Source of the DNA: a virus
Strand: one strand, 5' to 3'
Virus genome (UHGV): UHGV-1366603
Length of the DNA stretch: 64,000 nt
A model generated the notes under the pieces. The model saw only the letters and a program-made list of their open reading frames with translations. It was not told the DNA's origin and made no database searches. A program made the translations under genes and the position numbers. Of the stretch, positions 6,676 through 36,598 are shown one piece after another. Each line of letters begins with the position of its first letter. Positions within the stretch are counted from its first letter, which is position 1.

Positions 6676-6885
6676 TTAGTCTTTTTTGTAGACGATCGCG
6701 TTACCGTGCAGTTTGTTGTTACCGGAAATACCGATAACTTTAAACGCTTCACCGCCGATCTTTTCAGCTTCGACAGCCAGCTTAGCAGTAACGTCGTCTA
6801 CGGTGTCACCGAAAGCGCTTACGTTACCAATTTTCTTGAACTCTTCAGGAATGTGTTCAGCAGAAGAGAATTCTTTAATAGCCAT
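6676..6885 (-). CDS. small YdgH/BhsA/McbA (DUF1471)-like domain protein, no signal peptide
   Basis: 69 aa. C-terminal pattern ..KLAVEAEKIGGEAFKVIGISGNNKLHGNAIVYKK matches the DUF1471 signature (..SG.N..HG.A..YK). Confidence 0.5.
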   Translation of the reverse strand: MAIKEFSSAEHIPEEFKKIGNVSAFGDTVDDVTAKLAVEAEKIGGEAFKVIGISGNNKLHGNAIVYKKD

Positions 6886-12494: not shown

Positions 12495-12956
12495 ATGAAA
12501 ATCTTCACTTCCTTTTTAATCGCCCTTTTCGCAATCGGATTCAATACTGCACACGCCGCAATCAATAGCTGGGAACAACTACCGAACCCAGGTCAGACTG
12601 TTTACGAAATTGAAGACACCGCCGGAAACGGACTGTCTATCAACTGTGACACTGAAACTGCGAATCGCAAATTTTACGGTCGTATGGTTTGGTATTACGG
12701 GGAACCTGTAGGTGCAACTAACGCTGAAGACAACACGATGGATATCGTCGTAAATGGCAAAACCTACAACATCCCTACGGTGGATGGCAGTGACAAAGCA
12801 GAGCTCGCTTGGGTGGCTTTCGTTAACGCTATCGGTAACGCCAAAACTTTCAGTGTGAACATCAATGGTAACGAAGCTGCTAACTTTACCGTAGAAGGCG
12901 AACGTCTGTCTGAAACTTTCTTCCAGAACTGTGGACACACCCGTCCTAACAAATAA
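12495..12956 (+). CDS. small secreted protein (signal peptide)
   Basis: N-terminus MKIFTSFLIALFAIGFNTAHA (hydrophobic core, AxA site); SD GAGGAG; two Cys. Confidence 0.65.
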   Translation: MKIFTSFLIALFAIGFNTAHAAINSWEQLPNPGQTVYEIEDTAGNGLSINCDTETANRKFYGRMVWYYGEPVGATNAEDNTMDIVVNGKTYNIPTVDGSDKAELAWVAFVNAIGNAKTFSVNINGNEAANFTVEGERLSETFFQNCGHTRPNK

Positions 12957-12978: not shown

Positions 12979-13371
12979 GTGAAAATGAATATCAGAACTA
13001 TACTTTATTCAATCATTATTTTCTGTGCAATCGGTATTACTGGCACTTATGCTTTCGGCGATTCGGACGTCCGCCATTACGAACCGGCTCCTGACTCGCC
13101 CATTATCAACCCGGATGAGTCCCCTACGTTAATGCGCAGTTTCGGTAAACTGCAAGTTTATCGCTTAGTACGTGGTGAAACGTGTACCGGATTACTCATT
13201 GCTGACACCCGTGCACAGGTCTACCAACGTCTGACGGATATCGCCTGCGAACAACCAAAAGTCATGTCGGTCAGTATTCATCCGTTAGAGGTCGGTAACT
13301 ATACTGCTGTGGACTTCTTCCATAATGCAGAACTGATTGGTCGTATCACTTTAAATCGTAGCGCTGAATAA
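12979..13371 (+). CDS. small secreted or membrane-anchored protein
   Basis: N-terminal hydrophobic segment ILYSIIIFCAIGITGTYAFG; start may be GTG 12979 or ATG 12985. Confidence 0.55.
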   Translation: MKMNIRTILYSIIIFCAIGITGTYAFGDSDVRHYEPAPDSPIINPDESPTLMRSFGKLQVYRLVRGETCTGLLIADTRAQVYQRLTDIACEQPKVMSVSIHPLEVGNYTAVDFFHNAELIGRITLNRSAE

Positions 13372-13389
13372 TTTAATGGAGAATTTACA

Positions 13390-13872
13390 ATGAAACGTTT
13401 ACACACCCTGATGCTTTTCGTGGCTATTCTGTTCACAGGCTTTACCTTTAACACAGAAGCGGCTACCGTAAAACAAGCACTTAGCTGTAACCCGGAAGCC
13501 TGGGCTGAACAACCTGGTGCGTGTCCTGACATCAATACGCTCTATACCGACGACGCGACTTATAAAGCCGCAATCGATAAAGCGTTGAAACCTGTCGGAC
13601 TAGACGGGTTATTCGGTAAAGATGGTGTAATGAATGGTCCTGGCGGCGATGTTATTCCCGTGCAAATCAACGGTAAAGTCTGGCTTGAGTCTACCGCTTG
13701 CAAAAGCAATGCTTGTGGTTGGGAATACATCACGACGCTTTATAACCCGCAGACCCATGTCGTGGTAGGTTACTATTACAACGTCGACCCAGGTTACCTG
13801 GTCTGGTTCGGCGATATCGGCGTTAACGAATTCGCCTATCTGGTTAAGAAATACGTAGCTACGGTTAATTAA
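13390..13872 (+). CDS. secreted protein, Ivy-like (candidate periplasmic lysozyme / lytic-transglycosylase inhibitor)
   Basis: Signal peptide MKRLHTLMLFVAILFTGFTFNTEA. Loop ..ESTACKSNACGW.. matches the Ivy-family ..SACKPHDCG.. arrangement (C-x4-C with Lys at position 2), but the loop His is replaced by Asn. Confidence 0.45.
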   Translation: MKRLHTLMLFVAILFTGFTFNTEAATVKQALSCNPEAWAEQPGACPDINTLYTDDATYKAAIDKALKPVGLDGLFGKDGVMNGPGGDVIPVQINGKVWLESTACKSNACGWEYITTLYNPQTHVVVGYYYNVDPGYLVWFGDIGVNEFAYLVKKYVATVN

Positions 13873-13887
13873 TTTAAGGAGTCTGTC

Positions 13888-14298
13888 ATGAAAACGTTTA
13901 TCAAAACTTTACTCGTTGCTGTAACTGTTCTGTTCTCTCTTAACGTAGCAGCAAAAACAATAAAGCTACCGGCGGGTATCAAATACGTCAACAGTACCGA
14001 TGAATTCTACTGCACTGAAATTGACGGCCTGTATTGCCAGACAAAGAATTTGTTTGAATACAAAGGTAACAGATATGTTTTCGTTGTTGAGCAAGGTGGT
14101 GCCTGGTGCTACGACAGCCCTATGTCGGTACTCAACCTGGAAACTTGGAAAGCACAGAAAATTGAATACAAAGACAACCAACTGTGTTCAGGCGAAAACA
14201 AACCGTTCTTCAAAATCAAAAATGGTGTGCCGACTGTAGGTATTATCGACACCTCTGGAGCACCCATCGTTGTAGCTCAGGACAAACTTAAAATCTAA
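13888..14298 (+). CDS. small secreted protein (signal peptide, multiple Cys)
   Basis: N-terminus MKTFIKTLLVAVTVLFSLNVAA; SD AAGGAG. Confidence 0.65.
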   Translation: MKTFIKTLLVAVTVLFSLNVAAKTIKLPAGIKYVNSTDEFYCTEIDGLYCQTKNLFEYKGNRYVFVVEQGGAWCYDSPMSVLNLETWKAQKIEYKDNQLCSGENKPFFKIKNGVPTVGIIDTSGAPIVVAQDKLKI

Positions 14299-14308
14299 GG
14301 AGTAAACC

Positions 14309-14698
14309 ATGCGTCTTATCTGCGCTTTGTTGGCGTTTTTCTCAATCGGAGTTATGGCTTCTACACACATCGACGATTTATTACTTACCCCGGCAACGAA
14401 CACAGACTATCACTACAACCCACCGGGTTTTGAAGTCTGCGAAGGCGATGCAGGCGAATGCCAAGAAGTTGGCGCAGATGGACGCTATATACTCGTAAAA
14501 GCAGACGGCGGGACAACCTGCCCTGCGGGTTATTATTTCGTACTTGACGCTGTAGCAAAAGAGGTACTTCCTGTAACGACCAAAACGTGTGACCCCACAG
14601 TTGTACTAACGCTTGCGAAAAGCAAATCACGTGACCGCCATCTTATCGTCATCGAAGAACGCGGTGAGATGCTAGGCGCTATCGAATTAGATTACTGA
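14309..14698 (+). CDS. small secreted protein (signal peptide, Cys-rich)
   Basis: N-terminus MRLICALLAFFSIGVMAS; SD TAAGGAG. Confidence 0.65.
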   Translation: MRLICALLAFFSIGVMASTHIDDLLLTPATNTDYHYNPPGFEVCEGDAGECQEVGADGRYILVKADGGTTCPAGYYFVLDAVAKEVLPVTTKTCDPTVVLTLAKSKSRDRHLIVIEERGEMLGAIELDY

Positions 14699-15308: not shown

Positions 15309-15917
15309 ATGAACGAAATTACTTTGGTTCGTTTTATTGAAGCGATGCATCTAAACGAAGCTAATCCGCACTCTCCGTTATTCATCGATTTAATGGAGGA
15401 AGAAGTCGAAGGGTTCTTAGCGTACCCGCGTTTGAAAGACTACTTCGAACGTAAAACACCAACCGCTTACGAAAAGCTGATGTACGCGTTAGATAACCGT
15501 ACTACGCTAAACAATACGCCGTTTAAAGCGCTGGAAGCAATAGACCCTACCGGGGGTGCAGGTATCCCACAACGTGTTGTGTTCTACTACATCGACAACG
15601 GACGTATTAAAGCCGACGTTGTAAACTGGATCTCCGAAGGGGAAATCCCAGAAACGCGTACTTTTAACCTCTGTCCGGTAGAAGAAGGTTGGGTTGCAGG
15701 AACGCATTATTCCTATCCGTATCAAAGCATCAAATCACCTTATCTGTATCCGGTGTATTTAGATGACGTTACGCCAGGGAAATGTATTCCCGTTACCAAT
15801 CTGATTTGTTTACTGACGATGGAAGTTGTTGCGTCGGACGCAGGCCAGGCTTGGGTTGAGCAATCGAAGAATATCCAAAACTGGCAGGAGATGGGTTACA
15901 AACTCTATCAGCCGTAA
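15309..15917 (+). CDS. hypothetical protein (202 aa)
   Basis: ORF track; SD AAGGAAA; no motif recognised. Confidence 0.6.
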   Translation: MNEITLVRFIEAMHLNEANPHSPLFIDLMEEEVEGFLAYPRLKDYFERKTPTAYEKLMYALDNRTTLNNTPFKALEAIDPTGGAGIPQRVVFYYIDNGRIKADVVNWISEGEIPETRTFNLCPVEEGWVAGTHYSYPYQSIKSPYLYPVYLDDVTPGKCIPVTNLICLLTMEVVASDAGQAWVEQSKNIQNWQEMGYKLYQP

Positions 15918-15923
15918 TACCAC

Positions 15924-15970
15924 GAGAGAACCTTCGGGTTCTCTCCCTTCTCTTTTATTTTTTTTTCTTT
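15924..15970 (+). terminator. rho-independent terminator (GAGAGAACC-TTCG-GGTTCTCTC + long T-run)
   Basis: 9-bp stem, tetraloop, then TCTTTTATTTTTTTTTCTTTTT. Confidence 0.6.
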
Positions 15971-16002
15971 TTACACCACGCTCCGTGAATATGGAGGTGG
16001 AC

Positions 16003-18507
16003 ATGTTAAAAGTTGAACGTATTGTACTTAAAGGATTTACCGGAATGGGATTACACGAAATCGAAACCTTCGATTTTACTATCCATTCCCCGACCACCAT
16101 TATCCTCGGTGGTAACGGGTGCGGTAAGACCAGCTTACTGTCCGTGTTTCTACCTATCGCACCTTCGAAATCCGAATTCCGTGACGGGGGTTCTTACACC
16201 AACATCTGTTTGGTTAACGACCATCGTTACAAATTTAAGGTTGCACGTAAAGGCAACTCACTGGTTTGCGATATCGAGAACCTGACGACGGGTACCAAAA
16301 TCGTCGAACAAGGTAATGCGAAAGTGTATAACTCTCGTGTAGAAGAAATCACGGGCATTACAAAAGAGATTAAAGAGTTACTGAACGGAGAAGTGCTTTT
16401 AACGGATGCAGGAACGGAGCTGCGTCGTAAGTGGTTCTACCGTTTAAGTACGTCAGACTTAACTTACGCGTTAGGTTTTTATCAACGTTTACGAAAAAAC
16501 CTGACGATGCTAAACGGTGGTATTGAAATCACCAGCCGTAAAATTGCAGAGTTGCGTACCCGCGTAATTGATAACGAGGAAGAACGTCAGCAGTTAGCAA
16601 CACGGTTAAAAGCATTAGAAGTAGATTTACGTGAACTCAACAAACAGATTGAACAACTGCCTGGTCTGAATCGTGACGTTACGGTGGCAACTATTCAATC
16701 GCTATTGCTTAAAATCGAAGCACCGATTAATGCTATCTTGGAACACCGTGGCGGATTACCTACGGAAGAACAGGTAGAGGAAGCACGACGGATTGAAGCC
16801 ACTGCCCGTGAAGCGGTGGTCTCTGCTGAAACAGAACTATCCATGCTAAACAAAGATTTGTCTTTGTTGATGGACGAGTCCACTCGCCAAGATTACCTGA
16901 TGCGGAATCACGAGGGGTTAAAAAACACGGTTGCGAAACTGCGCGAGTTATTAAAGCAGTGGGACACTGAGCATCTTTTCCCTGAACTGTTTGCGGAGAC
17001 CGTTAACATCGACCAGCTTAAAGCAGCGACGGATGCGCGTGTCTGGGGACAACGTTTAGGAACAACGCTGGATGCTATTAAATCAACGGAACGGTTGAAC
17101 GTACTGGAAGAGAAACTGTTGACCTTAGACCAAAACTCATCTGGGTTGCGTGACCGGTTACAACGCGTTGAAAACGTATTGCAGAACCTCAACCACGAAC
17201 GGAATCACTATTTGGAAACTGCCGAGGTTGATTGTCCGCAGTGTCAATTTAAATTCCGTCCGGGTGTCCGTCGATCGCTGCCTGAATTGGAAGAAGCCAT
17301 TCGTGGTCAGATGGAGCAACGTAATACGTTACAGACTCAACTTGATTCCGTATTGCGAGACCGTACGGAATTAGAGTCAGACGTTAATTACATGCGTCAA
17401 GTACGGGAAATTGTTTTAACATACTCGAAAGACCCGGTATTGAGCTTGTTCTTTAAACGACTCCAGGAGCGGAATGTCTTTACGGATAACCGTAGTCAGT
17501 TTGGTAGTTTGTGCGCAGAGTTTGATCGTGAACTTTATTCTGCAATTGAGTACCACGAAACGAAACACCGTTTCGCTAAAGCGGAAAAAGAGTGGGAAAA
17601 TGCAGTTGCAGCGGTAGGTAACGTTGACGGTGCACTACAGCAGAAAATTGCCTTCCAGCAGGAACGTTTGGGTAAGGCAACAGAAACGCTCTCAGAGCGC
17701 CGTAGAGAGCACGCAGTTGCTAATGATACCTTTTGTTATCTAAACGAACTTAAAGCCACTGTAGACAATTTTAATGCGGTTTTTGAGCGTTTAGAGAACG
17801 ATGTTAAGGTAACATTAACCAACACGGTGGTCGAAACGTTATTAAACGCCCGAGAAAACAAGTTGGATGCGTTCACCACAGCACGGGAACGGTACCGTCA
17901 GATGGAAAACGAACTCAACCAACTTACTGCGTTAGAAAAGGAGTTATCAGATTTACAAGCGCAGCAATTCAATAACAAGCTGATGATTCAAGCGTTCTCA
18001 CCTGAGAAAGGGGTATTACGCAAATACTTCTACAACGCTATCGTGAGAATCACGGAATTGATGACGCGGTATATCGAACAAGTCTGGACCTACCCTATGC
18101 GGGTCATGCCGTGCGACTTAACCGACGGTGACTTAGACTACACGTTCCCAGTGCAGTTGAAAACCCATCCTGAGCCGGTACCTGACGTGCGGAAAGGGTC
18201 GAAAGCGCAGCGAGCCATCTTTAATTTGATGTTTCGTTTAACCGCTTACAAAGCCCTGAAACTTCATCAGTATCCGCTACTGTTGGATGAACCGTCAGAA
18301 GGGATGGATGAGGAACACCGAAATAACCTCGTCGGGTTTATTAAAACCCTGGCGAATTCCGGTGAGTTCTCTCAGTTACTGGTGGTATCTCACGAAGCAG
18401 AAATTCATTCAAAACTTAACGAAGCCGCATACTGTGTTATTGAACCTGAAGGCGTAACACTGCCTGCGGTATACAACGAGGGAGTAAAAATTGTCTACGC
18501 AAACTGA
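16003..18507 (+). CDS. Rad50/SbcC/gp46-like ABC ATPase with coiled coil and CPQC zinc hook
   Basis: N-terminal Walker A ILGGNGCGKTSLL; long coiled-coil middle containing ..VDCPQCQF..; C-terminal signature-like GSKAQRAIFNL, Walker B LLLDEPSEGMD and H-loop VVSHE. ATG at 16003 preceded by GGAGGTGG. Confidence 0.7.
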   Translation: MLKVERIVLKGFTGMGLHEIETFDFTIHSPTTIILGGNGCGKTSLLSVFLPIAPSKSEFRDGGSYTNICLVNDHRYKFKVARKGNSLVCDIENLTTGTKIVEQGNAKVYNSRVEEITGITKEIKELLNGEVLLTDAGTELRRKWFYRLSTSDLTYALGFYQRLRKNLTMLNGGIEITSRKIAELRTRVIDNEEERQQLATRLKALEVDLRELNKQIEQLPGLNRDVTVATIQSLLLKIEAPINAILEHRGGLPTEEQVEEARRIEATAREAVVSAETELSMLNKDLSLLMDESTRQDYLMRNHEGLKNTVAKLRELLKQWDTEHLFPELFAETVNIDQLKAATDARVWGQRLGTTLDAIKSTERLNVLEEKLLTLDQNSSGLRDRLQRVENVLQNLNHERNHYLETAEVDCPQCQFKFRPGVRRSLPELEEAIRGQMEQRNTLQTQLDSVLRDRTELESDVNYMRQVREIVLTYSKDPVLSLFFKRLQERNVFTDNRSQFGSLCAEFDRELYSAIEYHETKHRFAKAEKEWENAVAAVGNVDGALQQKIAFQQERLGKATETLSERRREHAVANDTFCYLNELKATVDNFNAVFERLENDVKVTLTNTVVETLLNARENKLDAFTTARERYRQMENELNQLTALEKELSDLQAQQFNNKLMIQAFSPEKGVLRKYFYNAIVRITELMTRYIEQVWTYPMRVMPCDLTDGDLDYTFPVQLKTHPEPVPDVRKGSKAQRAIFNLMFRLTAYKALKLHQYPLLLDEPSEGMDEEHRNNLVGFIKTLANSGEFSQLLVVSHEAEIHSKLNEAAYCVIEPEGVTLPAVYNEGVKIVYAN

Positions 18508-18691
18508 TTGGTGGCGTCAGTTACTAAGCGTTTTAGGGTTTAGCGTCATGGTGCTGGTTGCCATTCTGTACGTGCTATTTTGTATAACGGCGATTTTATG
18601 GGTGGTCTTAGCGTACGCGATTAGACTCGCCTGGGGTTCAATTTGGCACCAACGCGAATGTGAGTGGCGGTGTGTTGGAGGGAAGTCATGA
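18491..18691 (+). CDS. small membrane protein (66 aa)
   Basis: TTG start with GAGGGAG upstream, overlapping the end of the ATPase gene; one long hydrophobic segment. Confidence 0.4.
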   Translation: MSTQTDWWRQLLSVLGFSVMVLVAILYVLFCITAILWVVLAYAIRLAWGSIWHQRECEWRCVGGKS

Positions 18692-18798
18692 TTGAGGGTA
18701 TTCTGTTAACACTTGGGTCGTTGTGGATTATTGGGAAATCCCTCAACTGGCTGATTAATAAGTACGGATGGGCTTTCAAAGGCTCTACGCACAGTTAA
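18688..18798 (+). CDS. small membrane peptide (36 aa)
   Basis: ATG overlaps the upstream stop (ATGA); SD GGAGGGAAG; sequence MIEGILLTLGSLWIIGKSLNWLINKYGWAFKGSTHS. Below the ORF-track size cutoff. Confidence 0.35.
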   Translation: MIEGILLTLGSLWIIGKSLNWLINKYGWAFKGSTHS

Positions 18799-18848
18799 GT
18801 TAGAACCCCCTCCTGGGTAACTGGGAGGGCGTTTTACGAGGGAAAACC

Positions 18849-18977
18849 ATGACTGTTGTCAATACTACCAATGCTGCAATTGGCGCTTTATACAACGCGG
18901 AACTAACATGGGGTGCGGGTTTTATCACCGTACTGCTTCTCGCCGCAGCCGCTTTTATCATTGGACGTTGGTTTTAA
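18849..18977 (+). CDS. small membrane peptide (42 aa)
   Basis: ATG with GAGGGAAAACC upstream; sequence MTVVNTTNAAIGALYNAELTWGAGFITVLLLAAAAFIIGRWF. Below the ORF-track size cutoff. Confidence 0.35.
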   Translation: MTVVNTTNAAIGALYNAELTWGAGFITVLLLAAAAFIIGRWF

Positions 18978-20170: not shown

Positions 20171-20695
20171 ATGCTTACCTCACTCGGTAAGACCGTTATG
20201 CTAACGATACTTCCAGAATCGGTTATTGACAACGACCTGTTTAACGCCCCTGAGCGCTTCAAGGTCGTTACGATAAATTGCGTAGGGGCAATGGGTCGGG
20301 GTATCGCTTTAGCGTGCAGAGAACGCTATCCTGGGCTTTATCAGGACTACCGGGAACGTTGCTTCGCTAACGAAATACGAATAGGGAATGTGTACGTTTA
20401 TCCCGAGGAAAACTGCATTCTCTTACCAACCAAAACACATTGGAAACTAAAATCCCAGGTTTCTTATGTTATCGCGGGTATCACCGCGTTGGCAGATGCC
20501 GCAGAAAACTTAGAGGGTGGGGTGGCTTTACCGCCGTTAGGGATGGCTAACGGTTGGTTGACAAAAGCTGAACGTCAACAAATCTTTTTGTTTATCGAAA
20601 AGAAACTCGTACCGAGGAGACAACATTACCGTTTCTATTTACCCGATACGCTTTATCAAGAAGCAAAACCTTTAATTCCAAACCTTTTTAAATAG
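20171..20695 (+). CDS. macrodomain protein, TARG1/DarG-like (putative ADP-ribose hydrolase)
   Basis: ..VVTINCVGAMGRGIALACRERYPGLY.. resembles TARG1 ..[24 protein letters not shown]..; downstream ..ILLPTKTHWK.. and ..VALPPLGMANGWL.. parallel TARG1 ..LITKKRASHK.. and ..LSMPRIGCGLDRL.. Start may be ATG 20171 or 20201. Confidence 0.5.
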   Translation: MLTSLGKTVMLTILPESVIDNDLFNAPERFKVVTINCVGAMGRGIALACRERYPGLYQDYRERCFANEIRIGNVYVYPEENCILLPTKTHWKLKSQVSYVIAGITALADAAENLEGGVALPPLGMANGWLTKAERQQIFLFIEKKLVPRRQHYRFYLPDTLYQEAKPLIPNLFK

Positions 20696-20795
20696 ATATT
20701 ATCATTAGGGCACACAACAAAGGAGTTCCAGCTGTCCGCGCCGTGATTTCGTTCTACGGAACACGGAAATGTATAAATCCAACTGGAGAACTAGT

Positions 20796-21482
20796 ATGTT
20801 TCGTATTTTCTTTCTTTTACTGGTAACACTTTTCGCGTTTAACGCATACGCATCCAAATCCGCACCCAGTGCCAAACACCATCGTGAATTCGAAATGATT
20901 CAAGACCGTTTCGAACGTGTAAAACCGTTGATTGTGGAAATCTCCCGAAAGCAGGGCGTCGATCCTAAGTTGATGACCACGCTAATCTATCGGGAATCGC
21001 GGTTTAATCCGAAGGCGTATAATCGAACGTCTAAAGCGCACAGTCTGGTTCAGATGCTACCGAGCACAAAGCGTAATTTGCTAAAACTCTACGGTGCCGA
21101 AATCGGACTTAGTCGTAACGCGGATTTGTATAATCCTCGTAATGCGGTGCTATTGGCTTCCGTCTACGTTAAACATTTAGAAAAGGGGTTGACTAAACGA
21201 CTCAAACGCAAGCCCACTATTGCAGAAATTGCATTGGCTTATCACTGGGGTGAAAGTGGTGCACACGCCAGGATTAAAAGCAAGTCTCGGGCAGCACAAC
21301 GAGAAATGGCGAGCTTTATGAAAGATGCAACGTTCTACAGTGCGAAAATCGACAAGCCTGTAGCATCTCGTCAGCTTGCGTTTGCGAAGAAACCAGAACG
21401 CCAGATTCAGTTAGCGGAAGTTAACCGAATTTGGGATACGATAAACACCAGTTTTCCATTTAAACAAGGAGTCACCCTTTGA
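20796..21482 (+). CDS. secreted soluble lytic transglycosylase (SLT domain), endolysin candidate
   Basis: Signal-peptide-like N-terminus MFRIFFLLLVTLFAFNAYA; SLT motifs ..LIYRESRFNPKA.. (catalytic Glu-Ser) and ..AHSLVQMLPST..; ATG at 20796 has GGAGAA upstream (ORF-track start at 20769). Confidence 0.65.
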   Translation: MFRIFFLLLVTLFAFNAYASKSAPSAKHHREFEMIQDRFERVKPLIVEISRKQGVDPKLMTTLIYRESRFNPKAYNRTSKAHSLVQMLPSTKRNLLKLYGAEIGLSRNADLYNPRNAVLLASVYVKHLEKGLTKRLKRKPTIAEIALAYHWGESGAHARIKSKSRAAQREMASFMKDATFYSAKIDKPVASRQLAFAKKPERQIQLAEVNRIWDTINTSFPFKQGVTL

Positions 21483-27245: not shown

Positions 27246-27980
27246 ATGACATACCCGAAAACGATTCAACCTACCTTACCGACGCTGGTAATCGGTGCTG
27301 ACGCAGAAACCAAATCACTGCGTCCTGATGCGTATCTGTTAACCACAGGCTTAGTTGCCTTTGACGTACCGACTTTAAAAATGGTAGGGTCGTCGTATAT
27401 GCGTATTGATCCTAACGACCCTAAAGCAAAAGCTGTGTTCCACGAAGACCCGCAAACCGTGGGGTGGTGGGAAGGTAAAGGAGAACCTGAATACGCACCG
27501 TCTCGCGAAGCCTATACGGAAGCATGGGGCGGTACTACACCTATGCCGGAAGCGCTGTGGGCGATGCGTAAGTGGTTAGACGAAATCACCGGTAAACACA
27601 ATTTTGTTATCACCATGCGTGGCCCGGATTTCGATTCTCCGATTTTCATGAACGCGTTCGCACAATGTGACGTCCCTCCAGGTAAGTTCCGTAAATTCAG
27701 CGCGTTAGACAGCGACCGCACCGCAGAACGTTTAGCGTTGGCGTTTGGTTTTGAACCTGACTTGACCGTTGAGCAAGTTTACTGGACGCGTGGCAAACCT
27801 GCATTTGAACACCATGCTTTGTGGGACGCTGCGAAAGAAGCGTACACCACCGCACGTATTTATCACCTTGCACTGATTACCCGCGAGTATGGGTACGAAC
27901 GTGCTAAAGCCTGTCACGAAGAACTGAAAACCGGTGAATATATTCCACCACAGATTCGTGATCAGTTAACCAGGGATTAA
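27246..27980 (+). CDS. DEDDh (DnaQ-like) 3'-5' exonuclease (putative)
   Basis: Exo I-like IGADAETKS, Exo II-like GPDFDSPIFM, Exo III-like HHALWDAAKEAYTTARIYH. Confidence 0.55.
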   Translation: MTYPKTIQPTLPTLVIGADAETKSLRPDAYLLTTGLVAFDVPTLKMVGSSYMRIDPNDPKAKAVFHEDPQTVGWWEGKGEPEYAPSREAYTEAWGGTTPMPEALWAMRKWLDEITGKHNFVITMRGPDFDSPIFMNAFAQCDVPPGKFRKFSALDSDRTAERLALAFGFEPDLTVEQVYWTRGKPAFEHHALWDAAKEAYTTARIYHLALITREYGYERAKACHEELKTGEYIPPQIRDQLTRD

Positions 27981-27982
27981 GA

Positions 27983-29494
27983 ATGAAGAACGTTGATGTT
28001 GCTGTACTTTATACCGACGGTAGCCATTTAACCTCACCGATGGGAACAGGCGGTGGGATTCACGGTTACCTGTTTAATAAGGAAGAAATTGTTGACGGTG
28101 GCGTTTATCGCCACCCTACCATTCCCGAAGGGATTACAACCTCCGGCTATCGCCAGATTAACAAAGAGGAAAAACTTCCTGCGTTACCAGACTCTGTTGA
28201 GTTCGTGGACTGTGTTATTCCGGTACCGAAACACCACCACTCTGACGTTGCAGAGATTGTTGCTTTTTTAACCGTTTTCGAAAAAGCACCGTTCGTTGCA
28301 AAGAACTACATTATCTATATCGATGCGTCTTACGTTGTGAATACGTTTAACGATTGGATTGACGGTTGGGCTAAGCGGGACTGGCGACGGGCTGATGGAA
28401 CCCCTATCGCGAACCTTGAGCTGGTTCAACGGATGTGGGAAATTAAGAAACGTCTGAAGCGTGAAGGAAAAGGGATTCGTGTTCTTAAAATCAAAGGACA
28501 CTCTGGTCACTACGGTAACGAACGGGCTGACGGGCTGGCACGAAAAGGATCGTCCATCTCTGCACACGGAGAAGGCTTAGATTATCAGGCGTACTGGTCA
28601 GCAGACGAAATCCCGGAAGAACAGCAGGAAGAAATCGTCAGTGAAGGCGTTAACGTTGCCGCGTTTCCTGATATTTGCGTAACTAAGTTCTGTTACCCGA
28701 TGGTAAATGAGCAGCACCCTACAGTTAAAGTAAACGGTGAAAATCTCTATTACATGTTCGGGGGTAACCACGCAAAACAGAAGGACGATATTGTCTTCGT
28801 CGGAAAATACATTCCTGATGCGCAGTTTTGTGTGATGTTTACACGTGAGCCGTGGACAAACGTTTACGATTTGGTTAACACCCACGCTGCTAAAGCCTGG
28901 GAAGGTGTGCCGCGTTTGCGTCAGTTTGACCCTATCGCAGTTGTTTTTAACCTGTTCGTAAAACGTAAGAAGTTTGCGGAAGCAGCGGCTAACGGTATTC
29001 CGGTTGACAAAATGCACTTTAGCGAAGACAAAAACCTGTGGATGTACGAAGACTTGTCCATCAGTCGTATTCTGCGTCCTGCGTTATTGTCTTACCGTTG
29101 CATTTCCATTCGTGATGAACTGGCAGTGTGGCTGCGTGACTGTTTGGAAGGCAAATCAAACGTTGTCTTAAATGACATTACCGATTTGCTTTATGACGAA
29201 AAAGGTAAACCCACCAAAGACTTTTACCGAAACGTGGATAAAGGGTTTGACGTCTCCATTAAAATCCCTAACGGGAAGGTTGCCGTTAAAACTATTTTGA
29301 CGCGTGCTATCGACTTACCGACGCGTACGGAAATCAACCGTATCAAAGAACCGAATGGACGATTCTACGTCGCTGTACGTCGTCCAGAACGTCAGTACGT
29401 TGAATACGCGTTAGTGTATATCGGTGAGAAGTATCACGGTCTGTGGTGTGGTTATTATTCAAACAAACGAATATTGACCGATAAGGAACTTTGA
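27983..29494 (+). CDS. RNase HI-like domain protein with ~300-aa C-terminal extension
   Basis: VAVLYTDGS (Asp), ..VAEIVAFL.. (Glu), ..IYIDASYVVNTFNDWIDGWAKRDW.. (Asp), ..KIKGHSGHYGNERADGLARKG.. (His/Asp) parallel E. coli RNase HI catalytic motifs. Confidence 0.75.
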   Translation: MKNVDVAVLYTDGSHLTSPMGTGGGIHGYLFNKEEIVDGGVYRHPTIPEGITTSGYRQINKEEKLPALPDSVEFVDCVIPVPKHHHSDVAEIVAFLTVFEKAPFVAKNYIIYIDASYVVNTFNDWIDGWAKRDWRRADGTPIANLELVQRMWEIKKRLKREGKGIRVLKIKGHSGHYGNERADGLARKGSSISAHGEGLDYQAYWSADEIPEEQQEEIVSEGVNVAAFPDICVTKFCYPMVNEQHPTVKVNGENLYYMFGGNHAKQKDDIVFVGKYIPDAQFCVMFTREPWTNVYDLVNTHAAKAWEGVPRLRQFDPIAVVFNLFVKRKKFAEAAANGIPVDKMHFSEDKNLWMYEDLSISRILRPALLSYRCISIRDELAVWLRDCLEGKSNVVLNDITDLLYDEKGKPTKDFYRNVDKGFDVSIKIPNGKVAVKTILTRAIDLPTRTEINRIKEPNGRFYVAVRRPERQYVEYALVYIGEKYHGLWCGYYSNKRILTDKEL

Positions 29495-35101: not shown

Positions 35102-36598
35102 ATGGCAGGCCCAACTAAGCAAGTTATCGGTGAAGTAATTCGTCCTCGTTTTAACGTTTATACCATCATGGACCACGCCTTAGGCAACTACGAAAGAGGC
35201 GAAGATGGTTTATACTACCTTAACGGTGGTTTTGCCCACATCATGGGTTTCGCGGGTCGTGGTAACACCTTCAAATCTACACTGTTGGATTTCTGTATCT
35301 TCCAAATCCTGCAACGCTATAAAGCAGAGTGGGGTTCGAAATACGATACCGAAGTGTCTGCTGCCCTCGATCGCTTAGAGACTGGTTATATTTCTGCCAT
35401 GCACGCCAACGGTATTGACGATGGAACTTCGGTACTGGAACTTATTCACGAAGGTCGTTATAACCTCGTTGGTTCTGACGTGATGCCAGGGGAACAGTAT
35501 TACAGTGACTATATTCGTGACGAAGTGGAAAAACGCTTCAAGCAGTATATGTCTGGTAAAACCCGTGTAACCCCGTTCCTTGACCCAGTTCGTCGTAAGC
35601 AAAAAGAAATCCTTGACCCGTGGCTGTATTCTATCGACTCCCTGTCTGAGTGGCACTCGTCTTCTCTGGAAGACAAGCACGCTAAAACGGATATCGGTGA
35701 TTCCGATCAGAACATTCTCAACGCCCACGACGCCTTACAGAAATCGAACATGATGAGCCGTTGGCCGTCTGCGTTTGCCCGTGGTGGTTTCTACATGGGC
35801 TTTGTTGCACAGATGGCGGACGACTCCGGTAAGGCGATGGCTGGCGGTCGTCAAGGGCAGAAAGCAAACGCGAAACTGCTGGACGATGCGAACGACGATC
35901 TCAAATTCGCAGGGATTCCTCGTCGTCAGTTAAGCTTCCTGACTAACTCGTTTATTGTTGCGACAAAATCAGGCGAGCTGAAAAAAGACCAGAGTTATAA
36001 TGCCCAGACCGGTGTTAACGAAGAACTTTACCCAACTGCACGTTCAAAAGCCATGAACGCGTCGGTTAACGACCTGAAAGTTATCACCTTTACGCAATAC
36101 CGTGCTAAAGGCGGTCACACGGGTGTGAAGTTCCAGATGATCTTCTCACAAGAGATGGGTCTACTGTACCACCTGAGCCTGTGGCATTACCTGAGTGACA
36201 CCCTGAAAAAATCCGAATTTGGGTTTACGTCCAGCGGTAGCGGTGGTTCCATTAAAGAACTCCAGATTCTTCCTGGTGTTAAATTCCAGCGTACGACGAT
36301 TCGTGACATGATTGACGATAACCCGAAACTGCGTCGGGCATTAGAAATCACGGCTGCGATTGCGTACATGCAAAACAACTACCATCGTTTAGAGGTTAAA
36401 TACCACCTCACGATGGAAGAAATCTACAAACTCATTGATGAAAAATGGGATTGGAATGAGATTCTGGAAAACACCGTAGAATACTGGATGTTTAAAGACC
36501 AGGAAACGAAAGGTGGTAAACGCACGTTAACTGCCCGTACGATTCTGGGTATGGCCGTGGACGGCCTGGAACCGAAGTTCCTCACCAAAAAGAAATAA
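35102..36598 (+). CDS. RecA/UvsX-like P-loop ATPase (putative recombinase)
   Basis: ..GGFAHIMGFAGRGNTFKSTLLD.. resembles the T4 UvsX P-loop ..GLTIFAGPSKHFKSNMSL..; candidate Walker B ..PWLYSIDSLSEW.. Confidence 0.45.
   Translation: MAGPTKQVIGEVIRPRFNVYTIMDHALGNYERGEDGLYYLNGGFAHIMGFAGRGNTFKSTLLDFCIFQILQRYKAEWGSKYDTEVSAALDRLETGYISAMHANGIDDGTSVLELIHEGRYNLVGSDVMPGEQYYSDYIRDEVEKRFKQYMSGKTRVTPFLDPVRRKQKEILDPWLYSIDSLSEWHSSSLEDKHAKTDIGDSDQNILNAHDALQKSNMMSRWPSAFARGGFYMGFVAQMADDSGKAMAGGRQGQKANAKLLDDANDDLKFAGIPRRQLSFLTNSFIVATKSGELKKDQSYNAQTGVNEELYPTARSKAMNASVNDLKVITFTQYRAKGGHTGVKFQMIFSQEMGLLYHLSLWHYLSDTLKKSEFGFTSSGSGGSIKELQILPGVKFQRTTIRDMIDDNPKLRRALEITAAIAYMQNNYHRLEVKYHLTMEEIYKLIDEKWDWNEILENTVEYWMFKDQETKGGKRTLTARTILGMAVDGLEPKFLTKKK

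Follow-up and report, generated by a model that had tools for sequence, protein, structure and literature searches.

Within the jumbo phages, SbcC and SbcD have been described as 'practically universally conserved' (PMC7824862). An ordinary Rad50/SbcC-type ATPase for the processing of DNA ends is found in all phiKZ-like, nucleus-forming jumbo phages. The closest described relatives of the gene pair reported here are its direct orthologues, namely phiKZ orf165 and orf065, and SPN3US gp186 and Asesino gp207 with their SbcD-like genes. In phiKZ, orf065 is likewise encoded far from orf165, and both are core genes with fitness phenotypes on knockdown or insertion. The conserved core gene orf165 tolerated zero transposon insertions (PMC12676376), and antisense knockdown of phiKZ165 or phiKZ065 lowered plaque formation, with a knockdown strength of '+' for orf165 and '++' for orf065 (PMC12571901).

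T4 gp46/gp47 comprises the same subunit types, a coiled-coil ABC ATPase and a metallophosphoesterase nuclease, and its similarity to the present proteins is remote. The role of these proteins in T4 is end resection for recombination-dependent replication. T4 genes 46 and 47 are only two small ORFs apart, whereas the genes described here are separated by about 89 kb, and T4 gp46 has 560 aa compared to the 834 aa of the present ATPase. With E. coli SbcCD and the archaeal and eukaryotic Mre11-Rad50 complexes, the ATPase has a CxxC hook and a split ABC head in common, but sequence identity to these proteins is only 10-16%. Furthermore, the cellular genes are arranged in an operon, whereas the present genes are unlinked.

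The window analysed in this work is a stretch of 64 kb of viral DNA (UHGV-1366603), and it belongs to a jumbo phage of the family Chimalliviridae that resembles SPN3US and Asesino. Megablast against the phage collection gave no DNA match for the locus at or above about 85% identity, and it took a protein-level search to place it. The local gene order matches that of Asesino and SPN3US, including a hairpin upstream and small peptides downstream of the ATPase gene. A putative UvsX gene at 35102-36598 had no Pfam match; we assume that it is the counterpart of the Asesino 'putative UvsX protein'.

The ATPase gene (16003..18507) encodes 834 aa plus the stop codon and, like the flanking elements described below, lies on the plus strand. 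Its ATG at 16003 is preceded by a GGAGG box at 15994-15998, and the protein starts with MLKVERI in every homologue. According to the initial annotation, the product is a Rad50/SbcC-type ATPase that bears a zinc hook, and this description was borne out, as Walker A and B, D-loop, H-loop, the CPxC motif and a coiled coil could all be recognised. Walker A (the P-loop, GGNGCGKTS, residues 36-44, 16108..16134) was located by motif scan and homologue alignment, and its residues G36, N38, G41 and K42 do not vary in the 21 ATPase homologues aligned. The motifs of the C-terminal ATPase lobe (signature-like, Walker B, D-loop and H-loop) lie at 18196..18396, in a region that aligns with the Rad50 C-lobe in PDB searches. 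In the homologue alignment, D762 and E763 of Walker B (PLLLDEP, residues 758-764), D769 of the D-loop and H797 of the H-loop (VVSHE, residues 794-798) are invariant. A signature-like motif, which had also been reported initially, is indeed present (GSKAQR, residues 732-737), but it is degenerate with respect to the canonical SGG[QE]: both glycines are replaced, and S733 is the only residue of the motif that is invariant. No invariant Gln was found from Walker A to the coiled coil in the homologue alignment that would mark a Q-loop; a low-confidence hhalign alignment to T4 gp46 placed an acidic residue (~E125) opposite the gp46 Gln. Compared to cellular Rad50/SbcC, both the signature motif and the Q-loop of the present ATPase appear non-canonical.

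The GSKAQ signature and the lack of a clear Q-loop Gln, together with a Pfam SMC_N score of 35.1 bits, which is under the gathering threshold of 40 bits, would fit a degenerate or inactive ATPase that is kept as a structural relic. This explanation is barely credible, since the Walker A Lys, the Walker B Asp-Glu, the D-loop, the H-loop His, the signature Ser and the hook Cys residues are invariant down to 18% identity, and since the phiKZ orthologue does not tolerate transposon insertions (PMC12676376).

In the AlphaFold model of the ATPase (pLDDT 84.8), an outward helical arm (residues 138-405) and a returning one (residues 426-665) form a long antiparallel coiled coil. The CPQC motif (residues 411-414, 17233..17244), identified from the alignment and the model, sits at the apex in a turn of about 20 residues (406-425) between the two arms. 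C411, P412 and C414 are invariant among the 21 homologues, at identities down to 18%, and the motif is a predicted zinc hook. Neither the model nor the alignment contains an SMC-type globular hinge domain at the apex. The chain terminates in the ABC C-lobe, about 35 residues past the H-loop, and there is no extra or fused C-terminal domain.

An HMM classification of the ATPase, proposed as a check of the initial annotation, assigned it to PHROG 77 ('SbcC-like subunit', E 5e-91, 307.6 bits). Rad50 was the best PDB match both by single sequence and by family profile (profile E 5e-9); the family profile also aligned T4 gp46 (E 3e-5). Full-length tblastn identity was 69% to Asesino and 58% to SPN3US. 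Pfam curated thresholds were reached neither by the ATPase nor by the SbcD-like protein described below. When the model was used as a Foldseek query, the top match was Rad50 of C. thermophilum (7zr1_C, E 1.4e-18). Smc5/6, condensin and MukB were also among the matches (E 1e-17 to 1e-12), and databases label these ATPase proteins 'SMC domain-containing'. [quoted passage not shown] However, the apex carries an invariant CxxC hook where an SMC protein would have its hinge, Rad50 is the best match by sequence as well as by fold, and no kleisin or accessory gene was found adjoining the ATPase gene. We return to this possibility below, where the distribution of the two genes is described.

The surroundings of the ATPase gene were inspected with respect to a further alternative raised in the initial annotation, that the ATPase acts in exclusion or defence. 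In that case it would resemble the ATPases of Lamassu (LmuB), RloC or retron PtuA: DNA ends of foreign or competing origin would be recognised and an effector set off, perhaps the membrane peptides encoded downstream. The PADLOC LmuB model matches the ATPase over its whole length (E 8e-17, 59.6 bits), with AriA and PtuA matching more weakly, Lamassu and Wadjet structures are among the Foldseek matches, and conserved small hydrophobic peptides overlap the 3' end of the gene. However, the LmuB score is far below the 307.6 bits of the phage SbcC family and reflects common Rad50/SMC ancestry; the likeness to LmuB is one at the level of the superfamily. No LmuA- or LmuC-like gene or other Lmu component was found by PADLOC among the ten neighbouring ORFs, where the only match was a DarG-like macrodomain at 20171-20695, about 1.7 kb downstream. 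In RloC, a C-terminal nuclease domain is fused to the hook-bearing ATPase; the present protein lacks such an effector domain. Unlike LmuB, the ATPase is a core conserved gene of a lytic phage family rather than a variable accessory gene, and it co-occurs with SbcD. On the basis of gene context and relative scores, the Lamassu, PtuA and AriA assignments were rejected, and we consider a role in defence or superinfection exclusion highly improbable.

The flanking elements themselves are real and conserved, and nothing links either of them to the function of the ATPase. A consensus scan located a terminator-like hairpin with a T-rich tract (15924..15972), which follows the upstream gene (15309-15917) and precedes the ATPase gene. 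The hairpin proper (15924-15945) has a 9-bp stem (GAGAGAACC/GGTTCTCTC) and a TTCG loop, and the T-rich tract then runs to about position 15972. With a z-score of -5.3 versus shuffled sequences, and with its position kept in seven relatives in which the stem sequences differ, the strong terminator that had been noted at 15924-15970 is indeed present. Downstream, three small membrane peptides had been described as translationally coupled to the ATPase. Peptide 1 (66 aa, 18491..18691, TTG start at 18491; PHROG 16515, E 3e-6) overlaps the 3' end of the ATPase gene by 17 nt, reaches a maximum Kyte-Doolittle value of 2.93 in a 19-residue window, and has homologues at the same position in Asesino (gp208), SPN3US (gp187) and the examined relatives among L005-L015. 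Peptide 2 (36 aa, 18688..18798; PHROG 13448, E 4.7e-13) starts with an ATG at 18688 that overlaps the stop codon of peptide 1 as ATGA. It was also called as a 36-aa gene in ENA ERZ918879 k127_150560, which is 100% identical to the window over the 22.5 kb compared. Peptide 3 (42 aa, 18849..18977) is hydrophobic, is conserved in relatives and is homologous to SPN3US gp189, with which it has the N-terminus MTVVN in common. It is located about 50 nt beyond peptide 2, behind a hairpin at ~18806-18830, and is not coupled. The overlaps thus hold for peptides 1 and 2, and hydrophobicity and conservation were confirmed, while the coupling of peptide 3 was not.

It had further been stated that no neighbouring ORF encodes a calcineurin-like phosphoesterase, and this turned out to be true for the whole 64-kb window. 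None of the ORFs of at least 60 aa contained a GN[HD][DE] or GHxH motif, tblastn with an SPN3US-type SbcD gave no match, and the SbcD-like family profile, run with hmmsearch on all 651 six-frame segments of the window, scored 8.3 bits at best (controls: phiKZ065, 383 bits; T4 gp47, 18.7 bits). A 244-aa 'endodeoxyribonuclease' and an RNase H gene at 27246-29494 were considered as nuclease partners and rejected: the first is a DEDD exonuclease of the Rv2179c-like type, the second an RNase H, and neither is Mre11-like.

A candidate for the nuclease subunit is encoded at L021:5899-7047. This 382-aa protein matches PHROG 100 ('SbcD-like', E 2e-63) and shows 35% identity to phiKZ065 (E 9e-33), and the gene directly downstream matches phiKZ066. 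Single-sequence searches of Pfam, PDB and NCBIfam gave no match for it, and the link to Mre11 was made only by family profile and structure model. The family profile matches the Mre11/SbcD proteins of T. maritima, P. furiosus and E. coli with E values down to 1.3e-9, and also aligns T4 gp47 (E 5e-6). In a Foldseek search of the PDB with the AlphaFold model (pLDDT 92.5), the top 19 matches were all Mre11/SbcD; the best was E. coli SbcD in the SbcCD head complex (7yzo_A, E 1.6e-14), and the TM-score against the T. maritima Mre11 core was 0.73 (target-normalised). Among 34 SbcD-like sequences, the phosphoesterase residues H24, G57, D58, H180, H212 and H214 are invariant and D22 is nearly so (at least 90%). 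Motifs I (DxH), II (GD), IV (H) and V (GHxH) align to their counterparts in T. maritima Mre11, with motif V reading HHDH in the present lineage versus GHDH elsewhere. Motif III is an invariant GTPSHD in the Chimalliviridae nuclease, instead of the GNHD of T4 and other Mre11 proteins: Asn is exchanged for Ser, two residues are inserted, and His and Asp are retained. The canonical metal-binding Asn is therefore missing, and the altered motif is the probable reason why the protein is missed by Pfam Metallophos. Judged by sequence profile and model, the protein is a divergent Mre11/SbcD nuclease homologue and the orthologue of phiKZ065. A blastp search for chimallin beside the SbcD block, with phiKZ054 as the query, gave no match, which is uninformative as the clades are very divergent.

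The presence of this partner was read outside the 64-kb window, in genomes that are 96-97% identical to it. Both genes are present in IMG/VR contig 3300045988_078609 (224.8 kb, 96% nucleotide identity to the window) and in the closed circular genome NZ_CP134650.1 (222,441 bp, 97% identity), where the ATPase gene is located at ~16.9 kb and the SbcD-like gene at 106,244-107,392. Both queries also retrieved six more IMG/VR contigs. In the genomes that are 96-97% identical to the window, the two genes are about 87-89 kb apart; they are unlinked and belong to different conserved gene blocks. A similar distance, ~93 kb, separates the ATPase and SbcD-like genes of phiEaH2. The two genes of the present lineage carry the label 'hypothetical protein' in the closest RefSeq records. 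The ATPase query matched 290 phage records and the SbcD-like query 288, with near-identical genus counts. The initial annotation had called the ATPase an orphan. It has no adjacent Mre11/SbcD gene, but it is not a true orphan: it looks orphaned because its SbcD partner is ~89 kb away and outside the window. The alternative that the partner lies elsewhere is supported by the distal SbcD-like gene and by the co-occurrence of the two genes in about 290 phage genomes. The location of the two genes in different conserved blocks and the unequal phiKZ knockdowns ('+' for orf165 versus '++' for orf065; PMC12571901) would also fit the SMC-like DNA organiser discussed above. However, the co-occurrence of the ATPase and the SbcD-like gene is near-perfect, and together with the hook and the Rad50 matches this renders the organiser very unlikely.

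Taken together, the ATPase is very probably the Rad50/SbcC subunit of a phage SbcCD end-processing complex similar to T4 gp46/gp47, with a distal SbcD-like partner. The nuclease subunit would be the divergent Mre11/SbcD protein encoded ~87-89 kb away, in another conserved block of the same ~223-kb genome. By analogy with the family, ATP-driven dimerisation of two ATPase heads would clamp DNA ends, and the coiled coils would be joined via the Cys-Pro-x-Cys zinc hook. The bound SbcD dimer would then resect or open DNA ends and hairpins, and this end processing would serve recombination-dependent replication as well as the repair of phage DNA. It had been proposed that an Mre11/SbcD gene elsewhere in the genome, shown to form a complex with the ATPase, would make this an ordinary recombination-repair pair. 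Since such a homologue was found in the genomes 96-97% identical to the window, we regard the two genes as an ordinary recombination/repair pair, with complex formation, nuclease activity and biological role predicted from the family.

Several features count against the SbcCD reading, namely the degenerate GSKAQ signature, the missing invariant Q-loop Gln, the motif III without Asn and the unlinked genes. Because of the unlinked genes, the degenerate ATPase signature and the altered metal site of the nuclease (GTPSHD), it is conceivable that ATPase and nuclease are functionally uncoupled in nucleus-forming jumbo phages. The ATPase might then serve as a lone hook-linked DNA tether or act with the overlapping membrane peptides. 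We consider such an uncoupling very unlikely.

With the assignment as subunits of an SbcCD complex, two 'hypothetical proteins' of an enterobacterial jumbo-phage lineage can be annotated as SbcC and SbcD, subunits of a conserved recombination/repair module that was already known. Beyond annotation, this means little, and the biochemical gap concerning the Chimalliviridae SbcCD pair is already recognised in the literature. Motif and Pfam scans overlook the nuclease, probably because its motif III reads GTPSHD. Functionally linked genes are dispersed in Chimalliviridae genomes, and proximity on the map says little there about whether two genes are partners.

The ATPase gene (16003-18507, + strand) opens with an ATG at 16003, 5 nt after a GGAGG box; it encodes 834 amino acids, and its N-terminus, MLKVERI, is common to all homologues. 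The hallmarks listed for it in the initial annotation were all located: Walker A (GGNGCGKTS, residues 36-44), the hook (CPQC, 411-414), a signature-like motif (GSKAQR, 732-737), Walker B (PLLLDEP, 758-764) and the H-loop (SHE, 796-798). In an alignment of 21 homologues, with identities down to 18%, the Walker A glycine and lysine, C411-P412-x-C414, S733, D762-E763, D769 and H797 are invariant. This conservation is far beyond chance, and with its catalytic residues invariant the protein is extremely improbable as an inactive relic. Compared with the textbook Rad50 head, the signature motif retains only the serine, and the alignment shows no invariant Q-loop glutamine. The AlphaFold model (mean pLDDT 84.8) consists of an N-terminal beta-rich ATPase lobe, a C-terminal ATPase lobe and two helical arms (138-405 and 426-665) joined by the cysteine-bearing turn. 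The proposed classification check was carried out: the ATPase matches PHROG 77, "SbcC-like subunit" (E 5e-91), the Pfam SMC_N score is slightly below threshold, and Rad50 is the top PDB match both by sequence and by family profile. In structure, the model comes closest to C. thermophilum Rad50 (E 1.4e-18) and next to other members of the SMC superfamily. These searches agree in placing the protein with the Rad50/SbcC type.

A comparison of the 64-kb window with 50,697 deposited phage genomes yielded no DNA match of at least about 85% identity. Protein-level comparison of the ATPase ORF brought up 290 matching phage records, and almost all are large phiKZ-like jumbo phages. Identity is highest (68-69% over the full length) with the Erwinia phages Asesino, phiEaH2 and Stratton; Salmonella phage SPN3US and its relatives share 58%. 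Around the ORF, the genes run in the same order as Asesino gp188-gp238 and SPN3US gp170-gp208; Asesino is a published nucleus-forming member of the Chimalliviridae (PMC11724907). Outside the phage collection, the human-gut metagenome contig ENA ERZ918879 k127_150560 (223,427 bp) is 100% identical to the window over 22.5 kb, and 96-97% identity was found for a 224.8-kb IMG/VR contig and for two RefSeq circular "plasmids". The latter, NZ_CP134650.1 and NZ_CP173450.1, are ~222 kb long and deposited under Enterobacter ludwigii and E. coli. Isolate assemblies of Salmonella, E. coli and Shigella also contain contigs of up to 222-228 kb with members of the SbcD-like cluster that are at least 90% identical. 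These records suggest that the lineage is carried by, or persists with, cultured isolates of several genera.

Upstream of the ATPase gene lies a hairpin (15924-15945) with a TTCG loop and a T-rich tail (z = -5.3 against shuffles). Since seven relatives have a hairpin in the corresponding place, built from other stem sequences, we regard it as a conserved intergenic element. Of the strong terminator annotated here, the hairpin and its tail are thus real and conserved, and the terminator role is putative. Between the hairpin with its T tract and the gene (15946-16002 in the window), a comparison of the relatives' 90-nt upstream regions showed that they have TTTTTAC and (A/T)TATG motifs in common, ~13-35 nt ahead of the start codon; TATG presumably resembles the reported core promoter of the phiKZ non-virion RNA polymerase.

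Of the three downstream membrane peptides described as translationally coupled, two overlap the preceding gene. Peptide 1 (18491-18691, + strand, 66 aa) overlaps the 3' end of the ATPase gene by 17 nt, and an ATGA overlap joins peptide 2 (18688-18798, +, 36 aa) to peptide 1; peptide 3 (18849-18977, +, 42 aa) is set apart behind a hairpin. In 10/10 related loci examined, the ATPase gene is followed by a run of small hydrophobic ORFs, two to five in number and 32-86 aa long, the first starting at -16 to +4 nt relative to the ATPase stop codon. Family searches with the peptides gave nothing beyond PHROGs of unknown function, and no evidence tying them functionally to the ATPase was found. In T4, gp47.1 (28445-28585 of the T4 locus), a small predicted membrane protein, directly follows gene 47, a superficial and probably coincidental parallel to the peptides here.

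Several other genes of the window were recorded. An SLT-domain lysis enzyme is encoded at 20769-21482, ~2 kb downstream of the peptides. In PADLOC, the 174-aa product of 20171-20695 (+) hits the DarG model in its macrodomain part (E 3.5e-31), and it has no Pfam match at 1e-3; by position, its presumed Asesino counterpart is the gene annotated "Appr-1-p processing protein". A role as a phage-borne enzyme reversing DarT-type ADP-ribosylation of DNA is conceivable. Four tandem ORFs (12979-14698, +, 129-160 aa) with signal-peptide-like hydrophobic N-termini may encode a series of small proteins destined for secretion or the periplasm. Just upstream of them, at 12495-12956, the identical ENA contig carries a precomputed YfjT-family match (PF27224), and its 69-aa minus-strand gene near 6676-6885 has a YdgH/BhsA-like one (PF07338). 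At 27246-29494 (+), an Rv2179c-like 3'-5' exonuclease (244 aa) is directly followed by an RNase H-domain protein (503 aa), which is like the essential phiKZ155 (PMC12571901) in domain and length only.

The observation that no Mre11/SbcD-type nuclease neighbours the ATPase holds across the entire 64-kb window. The GN[HD][DE] and GHxH motifs are both absent from every window ORF of at least 60 aa, tblastn with SPN3US-type SbcD gave no match, and an SbcD-like family profile reached at most 8.3 bits among 651 six-frame window segments (controls: phiKZ065, 383 bits; T4 gp47, 18.7 bits). In SPLA3, a PHROG-annotated relative of SPN3US, an "SbcD-like subunit" is encoded at 32.9 kb and the SbcC-like gene at 179.8 kb, and its SbcD-like protein served as the query for a partner search in IMG/VR. 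There, a contig of 96% nucleotide identity carries the ATPase with 3 amino-acid differences and an SbcD-like gene ~87 kb away. The closed circular NZ_CP134650.1 (222,441 bp, 97% identical) has the ATPase gene at ~16.9-19.5 kb and the SbcD-like gene at 106,244-107,392, both annotated only as "hypothetical protein". The two queries also retrieve six further IMG/VR jumbo-phage contigs. In the phage collection, 290 records match the ATPase and 288 the SbcD-like protein, with near-identical counts per genus, including Pseudomonas (81/81), Erwinia (62/62), Serratia (21/21), Aeromonas (19/19), Klebsiella (16/16) and Ralstonia (13/13). The ATPase can thus no longer be called an orphan: the alternative raised initially, a partner elsewhere, was correct, as seen at ~87-89 kb distance in genomes 96-97% identical to the window rather than in its exact source contig. 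That the ATPase is an SMC-like tether acting without a nuclease is unlikely.

As a single sequence, the 382-aa SbcD-like protein had no match in Pfam, NCBIfam or PDB. It matches PHROG 100 (E 2e-63), but the match may be circular, since phage proteins, perhaps these SbcD-like ones among them, are what PHROG families are made from; a family alignment of 34 sequences was therefore built. The alignment recovered the phosphoesterase motifs D22 (nearly invariant) with H24, G57-D58, H180 and H212-x-H214. Motif III reads G-T-P-S-H-D instead of G-N-H-D in 34/34 sequences, so that, unlike Mre11/SbcD, the Chimalliviridae family has an Asn to Ser exchange and a two-residue insertion at a metal-binding position. 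The variant is the probable reason that the family escapes Pfam Metallophos and simple motif scans. Without exception, the top PDB matches of the profile are Mre11/SbcD proteins; that of T. maritima comes first (E 1.3e-9), ahead of those of P. furiosus and E. coli, and the motifs are in register. With the AlphaFold model (pLDDT 92.5), the top 19 Foldseek hits are likewise all Mre11/SbcD, led by E. coli SbcD from the SbcCD head complex (E 1.6e-14). The SbcD-like profile aligns with T4 gp47 (E 5e-6) and the ATPase profile with T4 gp46 (E 3e-5). The protein is 35% identical to phiKZ065 (RefSeq: SbcD-like; E 9e-33), and because the gene directly 3' of it matches phiKZ066, it lies in a conserved core block.

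Family membership of the two proteins, the joint presence of their genes in near-identical genomes and their co-occurrence are observed here, and we consider it very probable that the ATPase belongs to a phage machine of the SbcCD / Mre11-Rad50 kind, the counterpart of T4 gp46/gp47. By analogy with established knowledge of the family, the two proteins would form a complex in which ATP-driven dimerisation of the heads clamps DNA ends, the coiled coils are linked via the hook, and an SbcD dimer cuts and resects DNA; this would supply recombination-dependent replication as well as repair. When phiKZ165 ("SbcC-like nuclease") or phiKZ065 ("Nuclease") was knocked down by antisense, plaque formation fell, scored + and ++, respectively (PMC12571901). 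In the literature on this phage family, we found no paper with biochemical proof of an SbcC-SbcD complex. A match to LmuB (59.6 bits) would fit a Lamassu- or RloC-like ATPase for defence or exclusion; however, no adjacent effector was found in a PADLOC search of ten neighbouring ORFs, and such a role is at odds with the core status of the gene, which makes it very unlikely. The ATPase gene belongs to the standard core set of a known phage family and has its partner gene at another place in the genome.
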